Position numbers and translations under genes: made by a program
The notes under the pieces: model-generated
Database searches by the model: none
Seen by the model: the letters and a program-made list of their open reading frames with translations, nothing else
What the model was told of the DNA's origin: nothing
Shown: positions 4,099 through 57,157 of the stretch, one piece after another
How positions within the stretch are numbered: position 1 is the stretch's first letter
Layout: every line of letters starts with the position of its first letter
Assembly (NCBI GenBank): GCA_016181935.1
Contig: JACOYI010000005.1
Location: forward strand, 595 to 64,594
DNA: 64,000 nt
Origin: Candidatus Niyogibacteria bacterium
GTDB lineage: Bacteria; Patescibacteriota; Minisyncoccia; HO2-45-28
Direction: 5' to 3'

Positions 4099-4258
4099 TT
4101 TCATGAATTCAGGAAATCATTTTCTGGAATACGCTTGAATTTCCAGCGAAATTCAAGCTCCATCCTCGGCGCTTTGTTTTTTGATTCAGCAGAAAGTGTA
4201 ATCAAAAAACACCCTGCAAAGCGCCTGTGGGGCTTCCAAAAATAATTTCCTGAATTTA
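4099..4258 (+). repeat. Structured palindromic intergenic element, family A, copy 1 (about 160 bp, MITE/structured-RNA-like)
   Basis: Terminal inverted repeats TGAATTCAGGAAATCATTTT / AAAATAATTTCCTGAATT. Internal hairpins GCTTGAATTT..AAATTCAAGC and GGCGCTTTG...CAAAGCGCC. Second copy at 52936-53097 with compensatory substitutions. Confidence 0.6.
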
Positions 4259-4270
4259 TTTTATAAAACT

Positions 4271-10686: not shown

Positions 10687-10882
10687 GCCGCCTTAGCTCA
10701 ATTGGCAGAGCAACACTTTTGCCCGCCCGCCTAAGACGCGCCGTCCTAGCTCAATTGGCAGAGCAACAGTTTTGTAAACTGTAGGTTCCGGGTTCGACCC
10801 CCGGGGACGGCTCAACAATCGGCGCTAAGGCGCGTCGGGCGCGGTAAAGTGAAGGTTCTCGGTTCGACTCCGAGAGGCGGCT
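10687..10882 (+). tRNA. Interrupted tRNA gene: 5' half about 10687-10722 and 3' half about 10843-10882, separated by an insert containing tRNA-Thr(UGU). Anticodon ambiguous (GGU-Thr or UGC-Ala depending on the junction)
   Basis: Acceptor GCCGCCT pairs 7/7 with AGGCGGC 190 nt away. D-arm, anticodon stem (ACACT/AGTGA) and T-arm (CTCGG-TTCGACT-CCGAG) are all present in the two halves. Confidence 0.5.
10740..10812 (+). tRNA. tRNA-Thr (anticodon UGU)
   Basis: Hand-folded cloverleaf: acceptor GCCGTCC/GGACGGC, D-stem GCTC/GAGC, anticodon stem ACAGT/ACTGT, loop TTTGTAA, T-arm CCGGG-TTCGACC-CCCGG. Confidence 0.85.
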
Positions 10883-20673: not shown

Positions 20674-21819
20674 CTACGATGCTTTGGGGTTTTTCCACAG
20701 AAAACGGAGTGTTTCGATATCTTCGCCGGGTTCGGCGCCGATATCGGGTTCCGATTTTATTTGTTCGATCAATTCACGAGTGGCGGAGTCCCGGATCATG
20801 TGTATATGCGTGAAATATGCGTGCTCCGGCGGCGGTTCCTTGCGTTCGATTCGTTCGAGTTTTTCCGGCTCGGATTCGATCGCCGGCGGGGCATCGATGG
20901 GGAACCATCGGGCCTCCCGCGTTTGAAGCGGTCCTTCGGGGGATCGCGCTTGTGTTTTCGGGTTGCCATGATTCATTGCAACGCAGAAAAAAATCGTCCG
21001 AAAATAGGGCCGGCTTTCCTCCTCGTTTTTTCTCATGAGTTCGGCTTTGATCTCATCCGGCGCCGGATCGTGACCGAGATATTCTTTCAATGGTTCGATG
21101 ATCGAGTGCCAACGCGCTAAAACATGAACTGCGGTTTCGCTCTGCTTTGCGAGCAAATCCCGATTGGTCTCGATCTCGTTGGCAGTCGGTTCGCGGCCGA
21201 GCTTTTGTTTCAGTAAATCGGTCGGATCTCGCCTTGCGCGCCAGTCCAGATTGGTCTCGATCTCGTTGGCAGTCGGTTCGCGGCCGAGCTTTTGTTTCAG
21301 CCGACCCGCCGATTTTATGATCCGGCTGATCTCCCGGTCCGGATTCAGGACAATGCCCTCTTTGCATTGCGTAAGGATCCGGATTTTTCTTTTGCTTCCG
21401 GGGATCGGAACGTCTTCGCACCACGCCAGAAATCTGATCCTAACCCTGAATTCTTCGAATGCCTCTCGGATCGCGGTGCATTCGGGCGGTTCGGTCCATT
21501 GATTGCCGGATCGTTCGAACAGTTTTTTATACTGACCGCGGATGGCCGGATCGAGATCCGCAATAAAGGCGGAAACATCAACGGCGCTGAACGATTCGGA
21601 GCGTCCGCCGATGAGCCCCCAACCCTCCGGTTTTCCGGCCGGATACGGCAGATTGTATACGCACGCCACGTTTTCAAAGGAAGAATTCACGATAAAGTCG
21701 ACAACGTGATGGTCTCCTCGTCTCACGGTCTTTTCGAAAAGATCCAGCCGTGCGTCTTCGATCGGGATCATTTCGTCCAATAGAGTGAGGGGGGAGGCCC
21801 CTCTGCTCACATACGGCAT
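20674..21819 (-). CDS. Hypothetical protein (381 aa) with a tandem 17-aa repeat containing a sigma-70 region-3-like LGREPT motif
   Basis: ATG 21819 with GAGGAGGG RBS. Perfect tandem DNA duplication around 21160-21300 encodes LKQKLGREPTANEIETN twice. Confidence 0.6.
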   Translation of the reverse strand: MPYVSRGASPLTLLDEMIPIEDARLDLFEKTVRRGDHHVVDFIVNSSFENVACVYNLPYPAGKPEGWGLIGGRSESFSAVDVSAFIADLDPAIRGQYKKLFERSGNQWTEPPECTAIREAFEEFRVRIRFLAWCEDVPIPGSKRKIRILTQCKEGIVLNPDREISRIIKSAGRLKQKLGREPTANEIETNLDWRARRDPTDLLKQKLGREPTANEIETNRDLLAKQSETAVHVLARWHSIIEPLKEYLGHDPAPDEIKAELMRKNEEESRPYFRTIFFCVAMNHGNPKTQARSPEGPLQTREARWFPIDAPPAIESEPEKLERIERKEPPPEHAYFTHIHMIRDSATRELIEQIKSEPDIGAEPGEDIETLRFLWKNPKAS

Positions 21820-33967: not shown

Positions 33968-33980
33968 GCTCCGTTTTTTT
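33946..33980 (+). terminator. Rho-independent terminator overlapping the lon stop (GGAGCTCATCATGAGCTCC + T8)
   Basis: 9-bp perfect stem followed by TTTTTTTT. Confidence 0.55.
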
Positions 33981-33986
33981 TGCTCG

Positions 33987-34054
33987 CCCCGTTAGAAATT
34001 CGAGGAAGTCTATAAGGATAATTTTTTGCGAATTGAGTACAATTTCTAATGGGG
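33987..34054 (+). repeat. 68-bp MITE-like element, family B, copy 1 (14-bp perfect TIRs CCCCGTTAGAAATT)
   Basis: TIRs at 33987-34000 and 34041-34054. 40-nt core is about 70% identical to the reverse complement of the core of the copy at 45603-45670. Confidence 0.55.
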
Positions 34055-34066
34055 TTATGATGGGGA

Positions 34067-44436: not shown

Positions 44437-45602
44437 TGGCGAAATTTTCGTCATCGCGGCCGCTTTTGGTTCTGGATGTCGGGAGTTCGGGCGTACACGC
44501 GGCCGTTGCCACACGAAACGCAAAGGGAGTTATTGATATCGAGCGGGTCGCACGCTCTCATCCGTTGGTTTTGCCGGAGGTGAATCTTAAAAAATTGTGG
44601 AAGAAGCTCCATGCGATGGCGGCGGACGTCGTCGGCGACCTGCGCAAAAGCGGGTCCCGGCCGCATTCGGCGGTCGTGATCTTCTCATCGCCGTGGTATT
44701 TTTCCGAAGTGCGGAGATTTACGCATGTGTCGGAAACGGCCGTGGAGATCACCGGAAAACTTCTGGATACGTTCATGGCGGAGGAGGAGGAGCGGTTTCG
44801 CGTCGGCGCGCTTGAACGGTTCCATGTGGCGGCGGACGAAGTGCTGATTTTGGAGCCCGTGCGCATGCGCGCGCTTTTGAACGGCTATCCGGCGGACTCT
44901 ATTGTCGGAAAGCGCGCCCAAGCGATCGAGGCCTTTATCTATTTATCCGCCGTATTCGGCCGTGCAAAGAGCGATATAAAAACCCTCCTGGCCGATAACG
45001 GCATCCGGCTCGCCGGCGTCCAGACGTCGCCGATGGCGCTGTATCGGACCGCCCAAGCGCTTGGCATTGCGGACGAAGGCAGGGTCGTTATCGATATCGG
45101 CGGGGAGATCACCGAGGTTTCTCTCATTAAAAACGGGATTCTTCATGACAGCGTTTCCTATGCCCGAGGCCTGAATTTTGCGGCGCGGCGCGTGGCTGAA
45201 GCGTTATCATTCGACGCAGAGGCGGCGATCGTGTATTTGCAGAATTATGGCGCGAGGGCGCTCGAAAACGGCAAAGCGGCCCGCGCAAAAAAAATCGTGC
45301 GCGATGCGGTTGACGAATGGAAGGCGCTTCTGGAAGATGCGTTCGAGCATCTGTCAGGGAAGGGGTTGTTGCCGGAAATAGCGCTTCTTGCGGGACCGGG
45401 CGGAATCCTTGCGGAATTCGCGACGGCGCTCGGTGTCGATGAATTCCGGCGTTTTACGATCTTCGGACGCCCGTTCACCGTTGAACAACTGACGCTCGAT
45501 CGCTTTGCGGATCGGTTCACGCATATCCCGTCCGTTTTTTCGAATGCGGAGCTCACGAATCTTTTGGTCGATATTTTGTACAGCTTTACGCGGAATCCAT
45601 GA
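44436..45602 (+). CDS. Actin-fold ATPase-like protein (FtsA/PilM-like), hypothetical
   Basis: 388 aa. LVLDVGSSGVHAA and VIDIGGEITEVSL resemble phosphate-1/phosphate-2 loops of FtsA/PilM/MreB-type ATPases. Weak. Confidence 0.5.
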   Translation: MAKFSSSRPLLVLDVGSSGVHAAVATRNAKGVIDIERVARSHPLVLPEVNLKKLWKKLHAMAADVVGDLRKSGSRPHSAVVIFSSPWYFSEVRRFTHVSETAVEITGKLLDTFMAEEEERFRVGALERFHVAADEVLILEPVRMRALLNGYPADSIVGKRAQAIEAFIYLSAVFGRAKSDIKTLLADNGIRLAGVQTSPMALYRTAQALGIADEGRVVIDIGGEITEVSLIKNGILHDSVSYARGLNFAARRVAEALSFDAEAAIVYLQNYGARALENGKAARAKKIVRDAVDEWKALLEDAFEHLSGKGLLPEIALLAGPGGILAEFATALGVDEFRRFTIFGRPFTVEQLTLDRFADRFTHIPSVFSNAELTNLLVDILYSFTRNP

Positions 45603-45670
45603 CCCCGTTAGAAATTGTACTCAATGCGTAAACGGTTGATTGTATGGACTTCATCGAATTTCTAACGGGG
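45603..45670 (-). repeat. 68-bp MITE-like element, family B, copy 2 (inverted relative to copy 1)
   Basis: TIRs CCCCGTTAGAAATT at 45603-45616 and AATTTCTAACGGGG at 45657-45670. Core matches the reverse complement of the 33987-34054 core. Confidence 0.55.
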
Positions 45671-45698
45671 CGTGGTAGAATAAAAAGAACATAACGCC

Positions 45699-51673: not shown

Positions 51674-51700
51674 TTAGCACTCTTGACACGAGAGTGCTAA
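51674..51700 (+). promoter_or_regulatory. CIRCE operator (TTAGCACTC-N9-GAGTGCTAA) overlapping the hrcA promoter
   Basis: Perfect match to the CIRCE consensus. The 9-nt spacer contains TTGACA. A TATAAT sits 16 nt downstream and ends 8 nt before the hrcA ATG. Confidence 0.85.
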
Positions 51701-51718
51701 TTTTTATAATGGAAGTAT

Positions 51719-52354
51719 ATGATGCTCGAGGCACTCGAACCGCGGGAGGAAAAGATCCTCGATTATATCGTCCGGTTGTATGTCCGGCGGGCGGAGCCGG
51801 TGGCATCGTCCGATGTCCGCAAGGGCCTGCGGCTCAAGGAAAGTCCGGCGACGGTCCGCAATATCTTGGCGGAGTTGGATGAGGACGGGTATCTCGACCA
51901 GCCGTACACATCGGCAGGGCGCATTCCGACGGATCAGGCGTACCGGTATTTTGTGGATTATCTGATGGCGAGCGACATCCGCCGCCGAGCTAGCGCGGAT
52001 ATCCGGTCCATGGCAGATGCGCTGGGAATGCTTGCGATCGCTATGGACGACGACGATACGGATGCCTACGGTCTTTCGTATTTGCTGTCCCAGCCGGAGT
52101 TTCGTGAGCAGTCCGCAGTACAGCGCATCGCGCATTTGGTGGATCATGCGGAGGAGATTTTCGGCGCGTATCGCGATACCGGAGGGCGTGTATTCATCGG
52201 ACAGGAAAATCCGGTGCGCGAGGCGGAGGATTGCAGTGTATTTTACATATCCGATGGGCGGGGCGGCGCTCGGCACGAAGTGTTGTTGGTGGGCCCGACC
52301 CGCGTGAATTATGAGGAAGTGTCCGCGTTTATCCGTAATTTTTTCAAACCATGA
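51719..52354 (+). CDS. hrcA: Heat-inducible transcription repressor HrcA (short, 211 aa)
   Basis: N-terminal wHTH (ATVRNILAELDEDGYLDQPYTSAGRIPTDQAYRYFVD) typical of HrcA. CIRCE upstream and grpE-dnaK downstream. Confidence 0.75.
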   Translation: MMLEALEPREEKILDYIVRLYVRRAEPVASSDVRKGLRLKESPATVRNILAELDEDGYLDQPYTSAGRIPTDQAYRYFVDYLMASDIRRRASADIRSMADALGMLAIAMDDDDTDAYGLSYLLSQPEFREQSAVQRIAHLVDHAEEIFGAYRDTGGRVFIGQENPVREAEDCSVFYISDGRGGARHEVLLVGPTRVNYEEVSAFIRNFFKP

Positions 52355-52935
52355 GGACCGATTCTGATTTGGACGCTGATTTGGACGTCTCACGTCCAAG
52401 TAAAAAAATGGGGGAGGAGGAGTTGGAAGTGGTGGAAACGGGGGATGGCGAGGATTTTGGAACGCGGGACGTGGCGGCCGCATTGAAAAAAGCAAAGCAC
52501 GAATTGAGCGAATGCCGGAAAAAAGCGGAGGAATATCTCGACGGCTGGCAGAGAGCGAAAGCGGATTTCATCAATCGCAGAAAAGACGAGGAGAAGGAGC
52601 GCGAAGCGATGGCGAAGTTTGCGAACGAAAAACTTGTGAAGGATGTCCTGAATATTCTTGACAGCTTGGAAATGGCGGCAAGGGCAGGGGATTCCGGAGT
52701 CGCGAATATCCATCGCCAGTTGGCACAGATCCTGAAGGGATACGGAGTGGAAGAACTATCGGCTGTCGGCGCCGCGTTCAACCCCGCAGAGCACGAAGCG
52801 ATGCTGGAGGAAGCGGTGGAGGATGAATCGAAAGACGGAATGGTGCTCGAGGAATTGCAGAAGGGCTACCGGATGCGGGACAAAGTGATTCGCGCGGCAA
52901 AAGTGAAAGTCGGGGTTTATCAAAAATCAAAATAA
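52351..52935 (+). CDS. grpE: Nucleotide exchange factor GrpE
   Basis: 194 aa. Coiled-coil N-terminus and conserved C-terminal beta-domain (GYRMRDKVIRAAKV.V). Start overlaps the hrcA stop. Confidence 0.85.
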   Translation: MRTDSDLDADLDVSRPSKKMGEEELEVVETGDGEDFGTRDVAAALKKAKHELSECRKKAEEYLDGWQRAKADFINRRKDEEKEREAMAKFANEKLVKDVLNILDSLEMAARAGDSGVANIHRQLAQILKGYGVEELSAVGAAFNPAEHEAMLEEAVEDESKDGMVLEELQKGYRMRDKVIRAAKVKVGVYQKSK

Positions 52936-53097
52936 ATTCATGAATTACGAAATCCATTTTAGAGTACGCTTGAACGCCCAGCGGCATTCAAGCTCCGTCC
53001 TCGGCGCTTTGCTTTTTGGCTCGCTTCGCGAAATTTTAGCCAAAAAGCACCATGCAAAGCGCCTGCGGGGCCTCTAAATGGACTTCGTAATTCATTC
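52936..53097 (+). repeat. Structured palindromic intergenic element, family A, copy 2
   Basis: Same architecture as 4099-4258: TIRs TGAATTACGAAATCCATTTT / AAATGGACTTCGTAATTCA, conserved GGCGCTTTG...CAAAGCGCC stem, inner hairpins with compensatory changes. Occupies the grpE-dnaK spacer. Confidence 0.6.
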
Positions 53098-53115
53098 ATT
53101 AACTAACGAAATATT

Positions 53116-55026
53116 ATGGCAAAAATATTAGGCATTGATTTGGGAACGACGAACTCGGCGATGGCGGTCGTGGAGGGCGGCGAGTCGCGCATCATCGAGA
53201 ACCGCGAGGGCGTGCGCACCACGCCGTCCATTATCGCGGTCTCCAAAGCGGGCGACCGGCTGGTGGGACTCTTGGCCAAGCGCCAAGCGGTGACGAATCC
53301 GAAGAATACGATTTACTCGGTCAAGCGGCTCATCGGTCGGCGATTTGACGACGAGATGGTCCAGCGCGACAAAAAATTGTTGCCGTATGAGATCCGCAAG
53401 GCGGACAACGGCGGCGTGGAGGTCAAAGTGGGTGACACATGGCTCCGCCCCGAGGAAATTTCGGCGATGGTGCTCCAGAAATTGAAGGAAGACGCCGAGG
53501 CGAAATTGGGTGAGAAAATCACGGAAGCCATCATCACGGTGCCCGCATATTTTGATGACGCCCAGCGGCAAGCGACCAAGGCGGCGGGCGAGATCGCGGG
53601 GCTCACGGTGAAGCGCATCATCAACGAGCCGACGGCGGCCGCACTCGCGTACGGACTCAATAAAAAGAAAAACGAGAAAATTGTCGTCTACGATTTCGGT
53701 GGCGGCACGTTCGACGTGTCGGTGCTTGAAATTGGCGATGATGTCATCGAGGTGAAAGCCACCGACGGTGATACGCATTTGGGCGGTGATGATTTTGACC
53801 AGAAAATTATCCAGTGGGCTATTGGCGAATTCAAAAAAGAATCGGGAATCGATGTGTCAAAAGACACATTGGCACTTCAGCGATTGAAAGAAGCGGCGGA
53901 GCGCGCCAAGCACGAATTGTCGGGCGCATCCGAGACCGAAGTGAACATCCCGTATTTGTCGTCCGACGAATCGGGTCCGCGGCATTTCCTGAAAAAAATG
54001 ACGCGCACCGACCTCGAAAAACTGGTGGGCGAATATATCGAGCGCTCCATCGAAATCACCCAGCGCGCGGTGAAGGCGGCGGGATTTGCGCTCACGGATA
54101 TGAACGAAGTGATTTTGGTCGGCGGCCAGACGCGCATGCCCGCGATGCAGGACGCGGTCAAGAAATTGTTCGGCAAGGAACCGAACAAGTCCATCAATCC
54201 GGACGAGGTGGTGGCAGACGGCGCGGCGGTGCAGGGCGGCATCATGATGGGCGATGTGAAGGATGTGCTTTTGCTTGATGTGACGCCGCTCTCACTCGGT
54301 ATCGAGACGCTCGGTGGCGTGTCCACCAAAATCATCGAGAAAAATACGACGGTTCCGGTATCGCGGACACAGGTGTTTTCGACCGCGGCTGACAATCAGC
54401 CGCAAGTGGAAATCCATATTTTGCAGGGCGAGCGCGAAATGGCGAAGGATAATAAAACCCTCGGGAAATTCGTTTTGGATGGCATTCCGCCCTCCCCGCG
54501 CGGCTTGCCGCAGATCGAGGTGTCATTCGACATTGATGCGAACGGCATTCTGTCGGTAAAAGCGAAGGACAAGGGAACACAAAAGGAGCAATCGGTGCGC
54601 ATCGAGGCGTCGAGCGGACTTTCGAAGGATGATATCGAGAAAATGAAGCGCGATGCGGATGCGCATGCGGAGGAGGATAAAAAGGCGCGCGCATTGATAG
54701 ACGCGAAAAACACGGCGGATAGCATGATTTACGCCGCGGAAAAGGCGTTGCGGGACGCGGGCGACAAAGCGCCGGCCGATGTGAAAAAAGCGGTGGAGGA
54801 GGAATTGGCGAAGCTGAAGGAAGTAAAGGAAAAAAGTACGGACGCGGCGGAGATCGAAAAAGCGGCCGCGGCATTGTCGCAGAACCTCTCAAAAATCGGC
54901 GAGGCGATTTACAACGCTGGAAAGCAGGAGGCTGGAGGGCCGGATGCTAGAAAGACGGAAGACAGCCAGTCCAGTCAAGATGAGCCAAAGGACGTTAAAA
55001 GCGAGGATGTGGATGGAAAGAAATAG
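53116..55026 (+). CDS. dnaK: Chaperone DnaK (Hsp70)
   Basis: 636 aa. [19 protein letters not shown]-terminal acidic tail. Confidence 0.95.
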
Positions 55027-55226
55027 CGCTTTCGCATAACCACTTTTTCAACACTGCTCCGATGCTTGAAAATGATAGTCGTTTTGCGCGCGAAATCTTA
55101 ACGCGGTTCCCGTTCCTCCCTTCGGGATTTTCCGACCGCTAATTTCGCTTCAAAACTCCTTCATTTTCAAAGCATCTCCGCAAAGTTTCAAAAGTGGCTA
55201 TGCTTCAGCTCTTGGGAGATAAAAAT

Positions 55227-55547
55227 ATGGCAATAACACTGAATAAGCACGATAAAAAAATTGTTGATAGAGTAAGGGCGACCATTGAAGCTGCTTATAA
55301 ATCAGCAAATTTTCCATCCGCAGTGGCAAAAAGCATTGCGAGTAGGGCGACCTATTTTAGAAACAAAGGTCGTTCGCAAGCGATACGACGGCATCCATTT
55401 GAAGGCATTTGCGAAGCACACAAGAAACCATTGAAGAGGATAGATGCGCATTTGGATGAGATGGGTCCATTGGGATACGATGGACCAGTTAGATGGATTT
55501 GTCCGCTTGCGAATAATAGCGGTAAGAGATCTTGTGGAGAATTTTAA
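55227..55547 (+). CDS. Hypothetical protein on the AT-rich dnaK-dnaJ insert
   Basis: ATG 55227 preceded by GGGAGA. Basic, Cys-containing C-terminus (WICPLANNSGKRSCGEF). Low confidence. Confidence 0.3.
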   Translation: MAITLNKHDKKIVDRVRATIEAAYKSANFPSAVAKSIASRATYFRNKGRSQAIRRHPFEGICEAHKKPLKRIDAHLDEMGPLGYDGPVRWICPLANNSGKRSCGEF

Positions 55548-55548
55548 A

Positions 55549-55600
55549 TGAAAGATTACTACAAAATTTTGGGGGTAGGGGGATTGATTCAAAGTTTATC
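55549..55600 (+). other. Duplicated, truncated dnaJ 5' end (MKDYYKILGVGGLIQSLS*)
   Basis: ATGAAAGATTACTACAAAATTTTGGGGG is 23/25 identical to the true dnaJ start at 56087-56114. Marks the left junction of an insertion. Confidence 0.5.
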
Positions 55601-55620
55601 TTAAGGTAAACTTAGAACAT

Positions 55621-55845
55621 ATGAAAAACATCGTAGGATTGAAGGAATTGCGGGGGAATATCGAGAACTATATTTCCGAGGTGAAGAAGGGAAAGTCGTT
55701 CATCGTAGTGCGCCGGTCAAAGCCGGTGCTTAGGATTTCCTCGCCGGACGAGGATGAATCCATGTGGGAGACCGTGATTGATTTTACGAAGATCCGGAAG
55801 GGCGGTATTCCGGTGGATGAATTGCTGAAACGTTTGAGGGCATGA
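55621..55845 (+). CDS. Type II antitoxin, Phd/YefM-like
   Basis: 74 aa. Overlaps the downstream toxin by 4 nt. LRGNIENYISEVKKGKSFIVVRRSKPV pattern of Phd/YefM antitoxins. Confidence 0.55.
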   Translation: MKNIVGLKELRGNIENYISEVKKGKSFIVVRRSKPVLRISSPDEDESMWETVIDFTKIRKGGIPVDELLKRLRA

Positions 55846-56084
55846 TGGATTCGATTGATAAGGAGTTTGCCCGATTGACTGAAAAGGAGAAAAAGCACGT
55901 CAGGGCAATTTTTGTCCAGCTGAAGGAGGGCGATCAGAGGGGATTGAATGTTAAAAAAATAAAAGGCCGTGAGGATGTGTTTCGTGTGCGGAAGGGCAAG
56001 CTAAGGGTTATTTATCAATTACAGGACAAAACGGTTCATATTTTAGCGATTCGATATCGGCGAGAAGATACCTATAAATTTTAA
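55842..56084 (+). CDS. Type II toxin, RelE/ParE family
   Basis: 80 aa. VFRVRKGKLRVIYQLQDKTVHILAIRYRREDTY matches the RelE/ParE C-terminal signature. Confidence 0.7.
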   Translation: MMDSIDKEFARLTEKEKKHVRAIFVQLKEGDQRGLNVKKIKGREDVFRVRKGKLRVIYQLQDKTVHILAIRYRREDTYKF

Positions 56085-56086
56085 CT

Positions 56087-57157
56087 GTGAAAGACTACTA
56101 CAAAATTTTAGGGGTGGAGAAAGGGGCGGGGAAGGAGGAGGTCAAAAGGGCCTACCGGAAATTGGCGCACCAACATCATCCCGATAAAAAAGGAGGGGAT
56201 GAGGCCAAGTTCAAGGAAATCAACGAGGCCTACTATGTGTTGGGTGATGATTCGCGCAGAGCGCAATACGACCAGACCGGCCGCACATCGTTTGGCGGCG
56301 GAGGCGGGCCGCAGAGCGGGTTTGATTTCGAGGACATCTGGCGCCAATTCGGCGGCGCCCAAGGAGGCGCACGGGGCGGTGATTTTGCCGACATCTTCGG
56401 CGATATTTTTGGGTTTGGGGGCGGAGGCCAGCGCCAGAAACGCGGCGCGGATATCGCGGTGGATATCGAGCTTCCGTTCGCGGAAGCGGCATTCGGGACG
56501 AATCGCAAAATTTCACTTCGCAAAACCAATGCCTGCAAAGAGTGCGATGGGAGCGGGGCAAAATCCGGCACCGGAACGGTGCGCTGTGAGATTTGCAATG
56601 GGTCGGGTACGGTGCGCGAGAATCGCCGCTCGATGTTTGGTTCGTTCACGGCGCTCTCCGAGTGTTCCCGCTGTCACGGAAAAGGGGAGATGCCGAAGGA
56701 GCCCTGTCCGCAGTGCCGCGGCGAGGGGATCATGCGAAGCGAGGAAACTATCGAAATCGCGGTTCCCGCGGGCATCGATAACGGCGAGATGATTCGCGTG
56801 ACGGGCGCGGGCGAAGCGGTGGCGGGCGGACGCGCGGGCGACCTGTATGTGCGCATCCATGTGCGGCCCGACCCGCGATTCCATCGCGAGGGAATGAATT
56901 TGATATCGGACGTGGAAATCCCGTTCACGGATGCCGCGCTCGGAACCGAAAAAGTATTGGAGACGCTCGACGGAAAGGTTAAGATGGAAATACCCGCAGG
57001 AACGAATTCGGGCGATATGCTCCGGATCCGTGCTCGCGGCATCCCGAAGGCGCATGGACGCGGGGATCTCTTGATCCGCGTCACGGTCAGGACGCCCAAA
57101 AAATTATCGCGCAAGGCGCGCGAACTGATGGACGAACTGCGCCGAGAGGGGATTTAA
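56087..57157 (+). CDS. dnaJ: Chaperone DnaJ
   Basis: GTG start (the ancestral ATG version survives as the fragment at 55549). J-domain HPD, G/F region, four CxxCxGxG zinc-finger repeats. Confidence 0.9.
   Translation: MKDYYKILGVEKGAGKEEVKRAYRKLAHQHHPDKKGGDEAKFKEINEAYYVLGDDSRRAQYDQTGRTSFGGGGGPQSGFDFEDIWRQFGGAQGGARGGDFADIFGDIFGFGGGGQRQKRGADIAVDIELPFAEAAFGTNRKISLRKTNACKECDGSGAKSGTGTVRCEICNGSGTVRENRRSMFGSFTALSECSRCHGKGEMPKEPCPQCRGEGIMRSEETIEIAVPAGIDNGEMIRVTGAGEAVAGGRAGDLYVRIHVRPDPRFHREGMNLISDVEIPFTDAALGTEKVLETLDGKVKMEIPAGTNSGDMLRIRARGIPKAHGRGDLLIRVTVRTPKKLSRKARELMDELRREGI

Follow-up and report, generated by a model that had tools for sequence, protein, structure and literature searches.

The heat-shock genes dnaK and dnaJ of a Candidatus Niyogibacteria genome are separated by 1060 nt of low-GC DNA. 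This gap runs from the dnaK stop at 55026 to the dnaJ GTG at 56087 in the 64-kb stretch analyzed here, which we call the window and to which all positions refer unless another locus is named. The gap holds, in order, a long hairpin, a 106-aa orphan gene, and a Phd/YefM-RelE toxin-antitoxin (TA) cassette (Table 1). We propose that these are probably three independent low-GC additions, and that the TA cassette was probably inserted into the start of dnaJ, perhaps by microhomology-mediated illegitimate recombination. An earlier reading of the sequence alone (the original prediction) had described an AT-rich insert of about 1 kb between the two genes. The insert is present, with a GC content of 0.42 to 0.45. 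All of the listed features, namely the orphan open reading frame (ORF), the dnaJ repeat, the antitoxin, the toxin, and an inverted repeat, were found, some of them at corrected coordinates.

Two copies of the dnaJ start flank the TA cassette

The beginning of dnaJ occurs twice, once on each side of the cassette. The core of this direct repeat is identical at 26 of 28 positions (55549 to 55576 versus 56088 to 56115). When a 2-nt indel is allowed, the match reaches upstream through the 8-nt sequence AATTTTAA and becomes a direct repeat of 37/39 nt (55540 to 55576 versus 56077 to 56115). Its score was matched by none of 500 shuffles. The duplicated segment extends from −8 to +29 of dnaJ, and because it is present on both sides of the cassette, dnaJ stayed intact. 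In the upstream copy (copy A, the relic), an ATG at 55548 directly abuts the stop codon of the orphan gene and opens a mini-ORF that runs into the TA promoter. The downstream copy (copy B) serves as the start of the functional dnaJ. The original prediction was right that the 5′ end of dnaJ is duplicated, the duplication is longer than was stated there, and the difference in start codons, GTG in the intact gene at 56087 and ATG in the relic, has held up as well.

The limits of the inserted unit were seen by comparison with homologous cassettes. The DNA similarity between the window and these cassettes begins exactly at the −35 box of the TA promoter and ends exactly at the toxin stop codon. Because it spans exactly this interval, the inserted unit appears to be a minimal 501-bp promoter-to-stop module without a terminator. 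The seven bases to its left, AGGGGGA (55577 to 55583), lie outside the similarity. In the five homologous cassettes (L084 to L088), the promoter reads TTGACA followed by a perfect 24-nt palindrome, CAAGATTATCTTAAGATAATCTTG, and its architecture is conserved in the window. The −10 box of the window promoter ends 8 nt before the antitoxin ATG, which predicts an almost leaderless mRNA. At the other end, the toxin gene finishes with TATAAATTTTAA in both L084 and the window and with TATAAGTTTTAA in L085 to L088. An intrinsic terminator follows the toxin in all five homologues and is missing in the window, where the dnaJ GTG lies only 2 nt past the toxin stop.

The two junctions of the TA cassette fall within the interval from 55576 to 56085. 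Because AATTTTAA is native to the 3′ ends of both the toxin gene and the orphan gene, the right junction would fall within these 8 nt. From this shared sequence we infer that a microhomology-mediated illegitimate recombination may have placed the cassette here.

The cassette has relatives in other genomes. The nearest toxins are about 54% identical and lie in unrelated contexts, one beside coaE and another beside a gene resembling a type IV secretion system pilin gene. A 73-aa upstream gene is always paired with the homologous toxin, and the pairing of 73-aa and 80-aa genes was found in six homologous loci. No dnaJ-like sequence flanks the homologous cassettes in these other contexts. A tblastn search of plasmids with the toxin returned only three distant cyanobacterial RelE/ParE matches.

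One relative shows the site without the cassette

In a related locus (L001, ERR14064755), 5 nt separate the 3′ end of dnaK from the orphan gene, and another 4 nt separate that gene from a dnaJ that starts with ATG. There is no TA cassette, hairpin, or relic. The DnaJ protein is 77% identical to that of the window (first 247 aa compared), and the gene order, with the orphan gene followed by ATG-dnaJ, is that of copy A in the window. In four other Niyogibacteria loci, the dnaK-dnaJ gap measures 9 to 112 nt and contains no orphan gene, TA cassette, or hairpin.

The closest relative is a different locus (L098, SRR22387992), whose DnaJ is 80% identical in amino acids and 84% in nucleotides. Upstream of its dnaJ is the gene of a RelE-family toxin (15 to 254 of L098), which ends in REDMYKF and is 34% identical to the window toxin. 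What appears to be the C terminus of an antitoxin overlaps the start of this toxin. Between toxin and dnaJ lie about 345 nt and a minus-strand ORF for a membrane protein (310 to 582). The contig reaches 14 nt beyond the toxin on its upstream side, and the region that would correspond to the relic and the orphan gene is outside it. Either a TA was already here when the two lineages split and was later replaced or diverged fast, or RelE-family cassettes were captured here twice. We lean toward an independent or replacing capture, since the toxins most similar to that of the window are found in unrelated contexts.

These comparisons agree with the original prediction that the cassette is an insertion marked by the duplicated dnaJ 5′ end. 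L001 has no TA and has an ATG-dnaJ beside the orphan gene, and the four other Niyogibacteria gaps are short.

The cassette encodes a Phd/YefM-type antitoxin and a RelE-type toxin

The two genes are co-oriented with the antitoxin first, and the toxin start overlaps the antitoxin stop codon in ATGATG. The 74-aa antitoxin passes the cut-off of the NCBIfam model TIGR01552 (24.4; cut-off, 20.8). It also matches the Pfam family PF02604 (PhdYeFM) with an E value of 1.8e-6 and a score of 28.0, slightly below the gathering score of 29.8. In the alignment, a manual count gives about 65 to 70% identity between it and the 73-aa proteins that are paired with the homologous toxins. The toxin passes the gathering score of Pfam PF05016 (ParE_toxin; 29.2 versus 23) and matches the PHROG family of RelE-like toxins (E = 3.6e-9).

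We built a profile from the window toxin and six homologues and compared it with the sequences in the PDB. It matched M. jannaschii RelE3 (2e-5) and P. horikoshii aRelE (1.8e-4), and no ParE was among the sequence or profile matches of the toxin to the PDB. The AlphaFold2 model of the toxin has a predicted local distance difference test score (pLDDT) of 82, and its best Foldseek match is RelE3 (PDB 3bpq), with a template modeling (TM) score of 0.72 and a probability of 1.00. The further top matches are T. thermophilus RelE, HP0894, Mycobacterium tuberculosis (Mtb) RelE1 and RelE2, HigB1, and YafQ, with probabilities of 0.87 to 1.00. ParE first appears at rank 20, below all of the RelE-type structures. 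A place in the ParE subfamily of gyrase poisons is thus not supported.

The conserved residues fit the same assignment. In the family alignment, R48, R55, R73, and Y78 of the toxin are invariant, and in both the sequence and the profile alignments the three arginines align with R58, R65, and R85 of aRelE. Takagi et al. reportedly found in 2005 that these aRelE residues are functionally important. In E. coli RelE, the conserved basic and catalytic residues are R61, R81, and Y87. Because of the family matches, the ranking of folds, and the invariant arginines, the toxin does not look degenerate and is probably RelE-type rather than ParE-type, closer to RelE, HigB, and YafQ. Judged by its sequence features, the Phd-RelE pair resembles an ordinary type II TA module. 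The original prediction had named a Phd/YefM antitoxin and a RelE/ParE toxin, and the family, profile, and fold matches support these assignments; its concern that the toxin ORF might be degenerate is not supported, since PF05016 is matched above gathering and the arginines are kept.

Table 1. Features of the dnaK-dnaJ region and its operon in the window
Feature	Position	Strand	Details and basis
CIRCE operator	51674-51700	+	TTAGCACTC-N9-GAGTGCTAA, canonical; overlaps promoter
Sigma-70-type promoter	51683-51710	+	TTGACA-16-TATAAT, 12/12 match; heat-shock promoter of the operon; CIRCE and promoter together span 51674-51710
hrcA	51719-52354	+	ORF call
grpE	52351-52935	+	ORF call
dnaK	53116-55026	+	ORF call; HSP70 Pfam E = 2e-243
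Long imperfect hairpin, 170-180 nt	55028-55209	.	Core 55034-55203; terminal arms of about 42 nt, GCATAACCAC.../...GTGGCTATGC
Orphan gene, 106 aa	55227-55547	+	Homologue search; AlphaFold2 model
Direct repeat copy A (relic)	55540-55576	+	Final 8 nt of orphan gene (AATTTTAA), ATG, dnaJ nt 4-29
Relic dnaJ mini-ORF, 18 codons	55548-55604	+	MKDYYKILGVGGLIQSLS*; read from sequence; runs into TA promoter
Predicted inserted unit, 501 bp	55584-56084	+	Similarity to homologous cassettes
TA promoter/operator	55584-55620	+	−35 TTGATT 55584-55589, 17-nt spacer, −10 TAAACT 55607-55612; palindrome
Imperfect palindrome (predicted operator)	55588-55617		Overlaps TA promoter
Phd/YefM-type antitoxin, 74 aa	55621-55845	+	TIGR01552, PF02604, homologue alignment
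RelE-type toxin, 80 aa (79 aa if start is 55845)	55842-56084	+	PF05016, PHROG, PDB profile, AlphaFold2 fold
Direct repeat copy B (functional dnaJ start)	56077-56115	+	Final 8 nt of relE (AATTTTAA), CT, GTG, dnaJ nt 4-29
dnaJ, intact, GTG start	56087-57157	+	ORF call; 100% match to Candidatus Niyogibacteria DnaJ at NCBI

The gap splits a CIRCE-type heat-shock operon

The cassette lies in an hrcA-grpE-dnaK-dnaJ operon that is headed by a canonical operator of the CIRCE type (controlling inverted repeat of chaperone expression) and is predicted from these elements to be controlled by HrcA. The same synteny was found by tblastn in more than 60 loci of the candidate phyla radiation (CPR). As in the CIRCE/HrcA operons of Gram-positive bacteria and the CPR, the gene order is kept and the CIRCE overlaps the promoter. 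However, dnaK and dnaJ are here split by the hairpin, the orphan gene, the dnaJ relic, and the TA cassette. The intact DnaJ has 356 aa, with the J domain, the CXXCXGXG motifs, and the C-terminal domains present.

The DNA of the gap is compositionally foreign to its host. Its GC content contrasts with 0.56 to 0.60 in dnaK and dnaJ. At third codon positions, GC is 0.34 in the orphan gene and 0.46 in relE, versus 0.69 to 0.71 in dnaK and dnaJ. A scan with Rfam gave no match in or around the insert. The lone sub-threshold hit, an L2 leader within dnaK, was judged to be due to chance.

The orphan gene belongs to a rare family

The orphan family is well conserved and rare, with 39 cluster representatives among 1.84 billion proteins. 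Its members have 105 to 110 aa and occur in unrelated contexts in genomes of 38 to 68% GC (L001, 109 to 441; L002, 1075 to 1395; L090 to L097). Two genomes, those of the window and L001, have it between dnaK and dnaJ, and one has it between the E1-alpha and E1-beta dehydrogenase genes. The protein was assigned to no family in Pfam, NCBIfam, PHROGs, or PADLOC, its profile found nothing meaningful among PDB sequences, and a tblastn search of phages gave no match. Four of 17 family members weakly match the Pfam family Sp-CxC (E ≥ 0.005).

The AlphaFold2 model (pLDDT 93) consists of three N-terminal helices and a small Cys-rich beta or zinc-knuckle domain. In two structure libraries, the best fold matches are HNH nucleases, and these are weak (E = 0.56 and 0.13). 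By manual comparison, the family has a conserved D-E where the HNH motif has D-H. Because there is no family match, the fold matches are weak, and D-E stands for D-H, we did not file the gene as an HNH nuclease. A reading as a free-standing HNH-like gene that has degenerated is no more than a lead. The orphan domain also occurs in two large proteins, with six matched stretches in P0039 (1625 aa) and two in P0046 (1339 aa).

A separate long hairpin follows dnaK

The hairpin begins just after the dnaK stop codon. Its fold energy is −66.6 kcal/mol on the plus strand (z = −6.2) and −83.6 kcal/mol on the minus strand (z = −8.4), and no shuffle folded as well. The strands differ in G-U pairs by 0 versus 3, too few to show a strand bias. 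The hairpin has no T-run, no further copies in the window or in about 100 fetched loci, and no Rfam match. When the same sequences were searched for copies of the insert, only the homologous TA cassettes came up. It is absent in L001, where only 5 nt separate the dnaK stop from the orphan gene start. It may be an insertion resembling a miniature inverted-repeat transposable element, or it may be an element for mRNA processing or stability after dnaK.

The original prediction had suggested that an inverted repeat of about 17 bp marks the other junction of the TA insertion. This is not the case. The repeat, of 15 to 16 nt (55061 to 55075 and 55161 to 55176), is the middle of this longer hairpin, which is separate from the cassette and lies between dnaK and the orphan gene. 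A kinship with the repeat in the grpE-dnaK spacer (described below) was also tested, and the two are unrelated. On the minus strand, weak sigma-70-like matches (9/12; 55163 to 55191 and 55072 to 55101) would point antisense from the hairpin and are probably due to chance.

The dnaK-dnaJ gap is a common landing site in the CPR

We surveyed the 65 CPR loci among L004 to L083 that have both dnaK and dnaJ. The gap length is bimodal: 31 of the 65 gaps are shorter than 200 nt, and the other 34 measure 337 to 2557 nt and hold genes. The occupants include DUF3467 in seven loci, GIY-YIG in two, and an IS200-like transposase in two, as well as a 23S-rRNA-IVS protein, a NUDIX protein, a tRNA-editing domain, and Bro-N. 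By manual count, roughly 15 loci have a multi-pass membrane protein of 260 to 350 aa with no Pfam match. Neither the window TA nor the orphan gene was found by tblastn in the surveyed gaps.

The gap is thus a general hot spot, or tolerated landing site, in the CPR, and the location of the TA is therefore less surprising. The original prediction had called this location unusual. A TA cassette is indeed present between dnaK and dnaJ, and our literature search found no report of another. However, its rarity was overstated, because 34 of 65 CPR gaps hold genes and L098 has a different RelE-family toxin ahead of its dnaJ.

Other repeats in the window

Two other places in the window show a duplication with a short filler. 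A 35-nt copy (91%) of the 5′ half of tRNA-Thr(TGT) at 10687 to 10721 lies 18 nt upstream of the intact tRNA (10740 to 10813). The two copies of a 70-nt direct repeat (21144 to 21213 and 21231 to 21300; 93% identity) are 17 nt apart. Read on the minus strand, this repeat is an in-frame tandem duplication of 29 codons with an LGREPT motif, resembling sigma factors. Together, these events suggest that the genome is prone to such rearrangement.

The grpE-dnaK spacer (52940 to 53100) holds an element of about 165 nt that is 81% identical to a copy at 4103 to 4260, between the genes of an aldolase and a 2-hydroxyacid dehydrogenase. The two copies share one predicted fold, a long branched hairpin (z = −8.8 and −9.1), and have no Rfam match. 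They differ by compensatory changes, for example CUUGAACGCC..GGCAUUCAAG versus CUUGAAUUUC..GAAAUUCAAG. This element is a candidate structured intergenic repeat or noncoding RNA family. An 86-nt inverted repeat (33974 to 34059 and 45598 to 45683) is 78% complementary, and its arms are 11.5 kb apart.

Discussion

We suggest the following order of events. The orphan gene, common to the window and L001, would be the oldest addition and would have abutted the dnaJ start codon. The terminatorless Phd/YefM-RelE cassette would then have landed about 28 nt inside dnaJ, and the hairpin would have been inserted separately just after dnaK. In the second step, a template switch during replication or repair, or a microhomology-primed repair, would copy the cassette and re-enter the target at AATTTTAA. 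Re-entry there would duplicate exactly the stretch of the target between the junctions, dnaJ −8 to +29. Fill-in of a widely staggered break would be another route to the same product. Neither route would need a transposase, an integrase, or an integron.

Known recombinases were considered and set aside. Neither the insert nor any of 10 selected long ORFs at about 45.7 to 62.6 kb, where several others were unscanned, was found to encode an integrase or transposase domain; the 10 include rpsD, rpoA, rplQ, and several ORFs with no Pfam match. Transposons and insertion sequences (IS) are recognized by a transposase, terminal inverted repeats, and a target-site duplication of 2 to 15 bp. Here the insert and the scanned ORFs have no transposase, the cassette is bounded by a −35 box and a stop codon, and the duplication measures 37 to 39 nt, so an IS or transposon insertion was rejected. 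An integron cassette was rejected because the 2 nt between the toxin stop and the dnaJ start leave no room for an attC site. An integrase-mediated island would explain the direct repeats, but neither the insert of 500 nt nor the 10 scanned ORFs encode a recombinase.

Several observations weigh against the proposed insertion. The empty site is seen in only one relative, L001, on a contig of 1.2 kb, and its empty state could equally be derived, by deletion between direct repeats. The toxin of L098 means that a TA at this site may predate the split of the lineages, which makes the order of events uncertain. Copies A and B differ by the 2-nt indel and by three substitutions (A/G in the start codon and two in the 28-nt core), so the event was not recent and its details are blurred. 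The 8-nt microhomology lies in an AT-rich stretch and includes the shared TAA stop codon, and we estimate the probability of its chance occurrence at about 1e-3 to 1e-2. No clear microhomology is present at the left junction (55577 to 55583, AGGGGGA). Moreover, the window sequence is a metagenome-assembled contig, and the junctions are known from the assembly alone. Because of the left junction and the chance estimate for the 8-mer, we consider the chances about evenly balanced for the microhomology step itself.

The cassette could instead be an old resident. In this scenario, a RelE-family cassette was present in the ancestor of the window and L098 and was inherited vertically, and L001 lost it through recombination between the direct repeats. 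The toxin of L098, with its apparent antitoxin overlap, is what such a history predicts in the closest relative, and copy B shares a synonymous TTA with L098, the relic a TTG with L001. However, the two toxins are 34% identical where the DnaJ proteins are 80% identical, and the window toxin is closer (about 54%) to toxins in unrelated contexts. The toxin of L098 is also separated from dnaJ by about 345 nt and a minus-strand gene rather than by 2 nt, and the direct repeat would still record an insertion, merely an earlier one. We regard this history as unlikely. A cassette that was kept because RelE activity or TA autoregulation became wired into the heat shock response or the control of dnaJ seems to us quite doubtful. 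The original prediction had raised such a coupling of RelE to heat shock, which the architecture would allow but which is speculative. The position inside a CIRCE-controlled operon, the loss of the terminator with dnaJ starting 2 nt after the toxin stop, and the presence of another, dissimilar RelE-family toxin ahead of dnaJ in the sister lineage would all fit such a domestication. This evidence is purely architectural, though, the gap collects unrelated and selfish genes across the CPR in general, and most Niyogibacteria have no TA there.

Two other explanations are highly improbable. An integrative element typically brings along the end of its target gene, so that the gene is regenerated and direct repeats are left, and copies A and B fit this pattern. 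They could then be the attL and attR sites of an integrase element, a small island or integron-like, of which only the TA is left. Against this stand the failure to find an integrase or transposase in the scanned ORFs, the content between the repeats, which is exactly the promoter-to-stop TA unit plus 7 nt with no space for attC, and the homologous cassettes elsewhere, whose flanks are not dnaJ-like. An assembly artifact is just as hard to credit. Since the source is a metagenome-assembled genome and both arrangements exist in related strains (L001 and L098), two strain variants, orphan-dnaJ and TA-dnaJ, might have been joined through their shared dnaJ 5′ sequence. But the junction of the relic with the TA promoter (55577 to 55590) is unique and not explicable by a shared k-mer, the copies are separated by an indel and by mismatches at 3 of 29 positions, and the same gene order is found at NCBI on a 79.7-kb contig, with 100% matches to the orphan protein, the toxin, and DnaJ. 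We keep the insertion into the dnaJ start as our preferred reading.

The TA cassette shares features with several known systems. Archaeal and bacterial RelE toxins (RelE3, PDB 3bpq; aRelE, 1wmi; Mtb RelE1 and RelE2; E. coli RelE) have the same small alpha/beta fold, and in RelBE, as here, the toxin gene is second and overlaps the antitoxin stop codon. However, the window toxin is only 16 to 28% identical to the solved RelE toxins, at 80 aa it is at the short end of the family, and its partner is of the Phd/YefM type rather than the RelB type. With the YefM-YoeB and Phd systems, it shares the pairing of a Phd/YefM N-terminal domain with a RelE-superfamily toxin and a palindromic operator that overlaps the promoter. 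It differs in that the fold and profile searches place its toxin closer to RelE proper than to YoeB, and in the near-leaderless layout predicted from its sequence. As in other modules of this kind, the palindrome would be the site at which the complex of antitoxin and toxin represses the TA promoter, and RelE that is free of antitoxin would, by analogy, cleave mRNA on the ribosome.

Pandey and Gerdes are said to have argued in 2005 that TA loci behave as mobile cassettes. Vibrio superintegrons carry mobile chromosomal TA cassettes. The window cassette is likewise a solitary promoter with two genes and of foreign composition, and its type occurs in unrelated genomic contexts across genomes. Unlike the Vibrio cassettes, it has no attC, integrase, or transposon, and it keeps its junctions, with the 37/39-nt target duplication and the 8-nt microhomology.

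The arrangement has predicted consequences for expression. No terminator lies on the way from the CIRCE promoter to the TA, so that transcription induced by heat shock should continue into phd-relE. Nor does a terminator follow relE, and dnaJ should accordingly be transcribed from the TA promoter as well. We considered and dropped the loss of a Shine-Dalgarno site in dnaJ as an argument, since only 6 of the 36 long ORFs in the window have a Shine-Dalgarno-like motif (GGAG, GAGG, or AGGA at −20 to −4), a frequency close to background. This genome seems to make little use of such sites.

We also considered whether the region upstream of dnaJ in this Niyogibacteria sublineage is a recurrent capture site for RelE cassettes. 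The basis for this is that two sister lineages have toxins that are only 34% identical, and we offer it as a long shot. One cause could be that the HNH-like orphan protein makes breaks near the dnaJ start, which microhomology-mediated capture then repairs. Another could be selection for a dnaJ under the TA promoter with translational coupling. If the latter is true, the supply of the co-chaperone would be linked to TA autoregulation.

There is little documentation of how solitary chromosomal TA cassettes move when no transposase or integrase is involved. This locus keeps both junctions of such a cassette, a promoter-to-stop unit within a target duplication and with microhomology at one junction, and it is a clean natural example that points to recombinase-independent capture. 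Knowledge of RelE-type systems themselves is unchanged. For the CPR, the locus indicates that the dnaK-dnaJ gap of the CIRCE operon tolerates foreign genes, and that a toxin gene can come to precede the essential dnaJ in transcription and perhaps also in translation.

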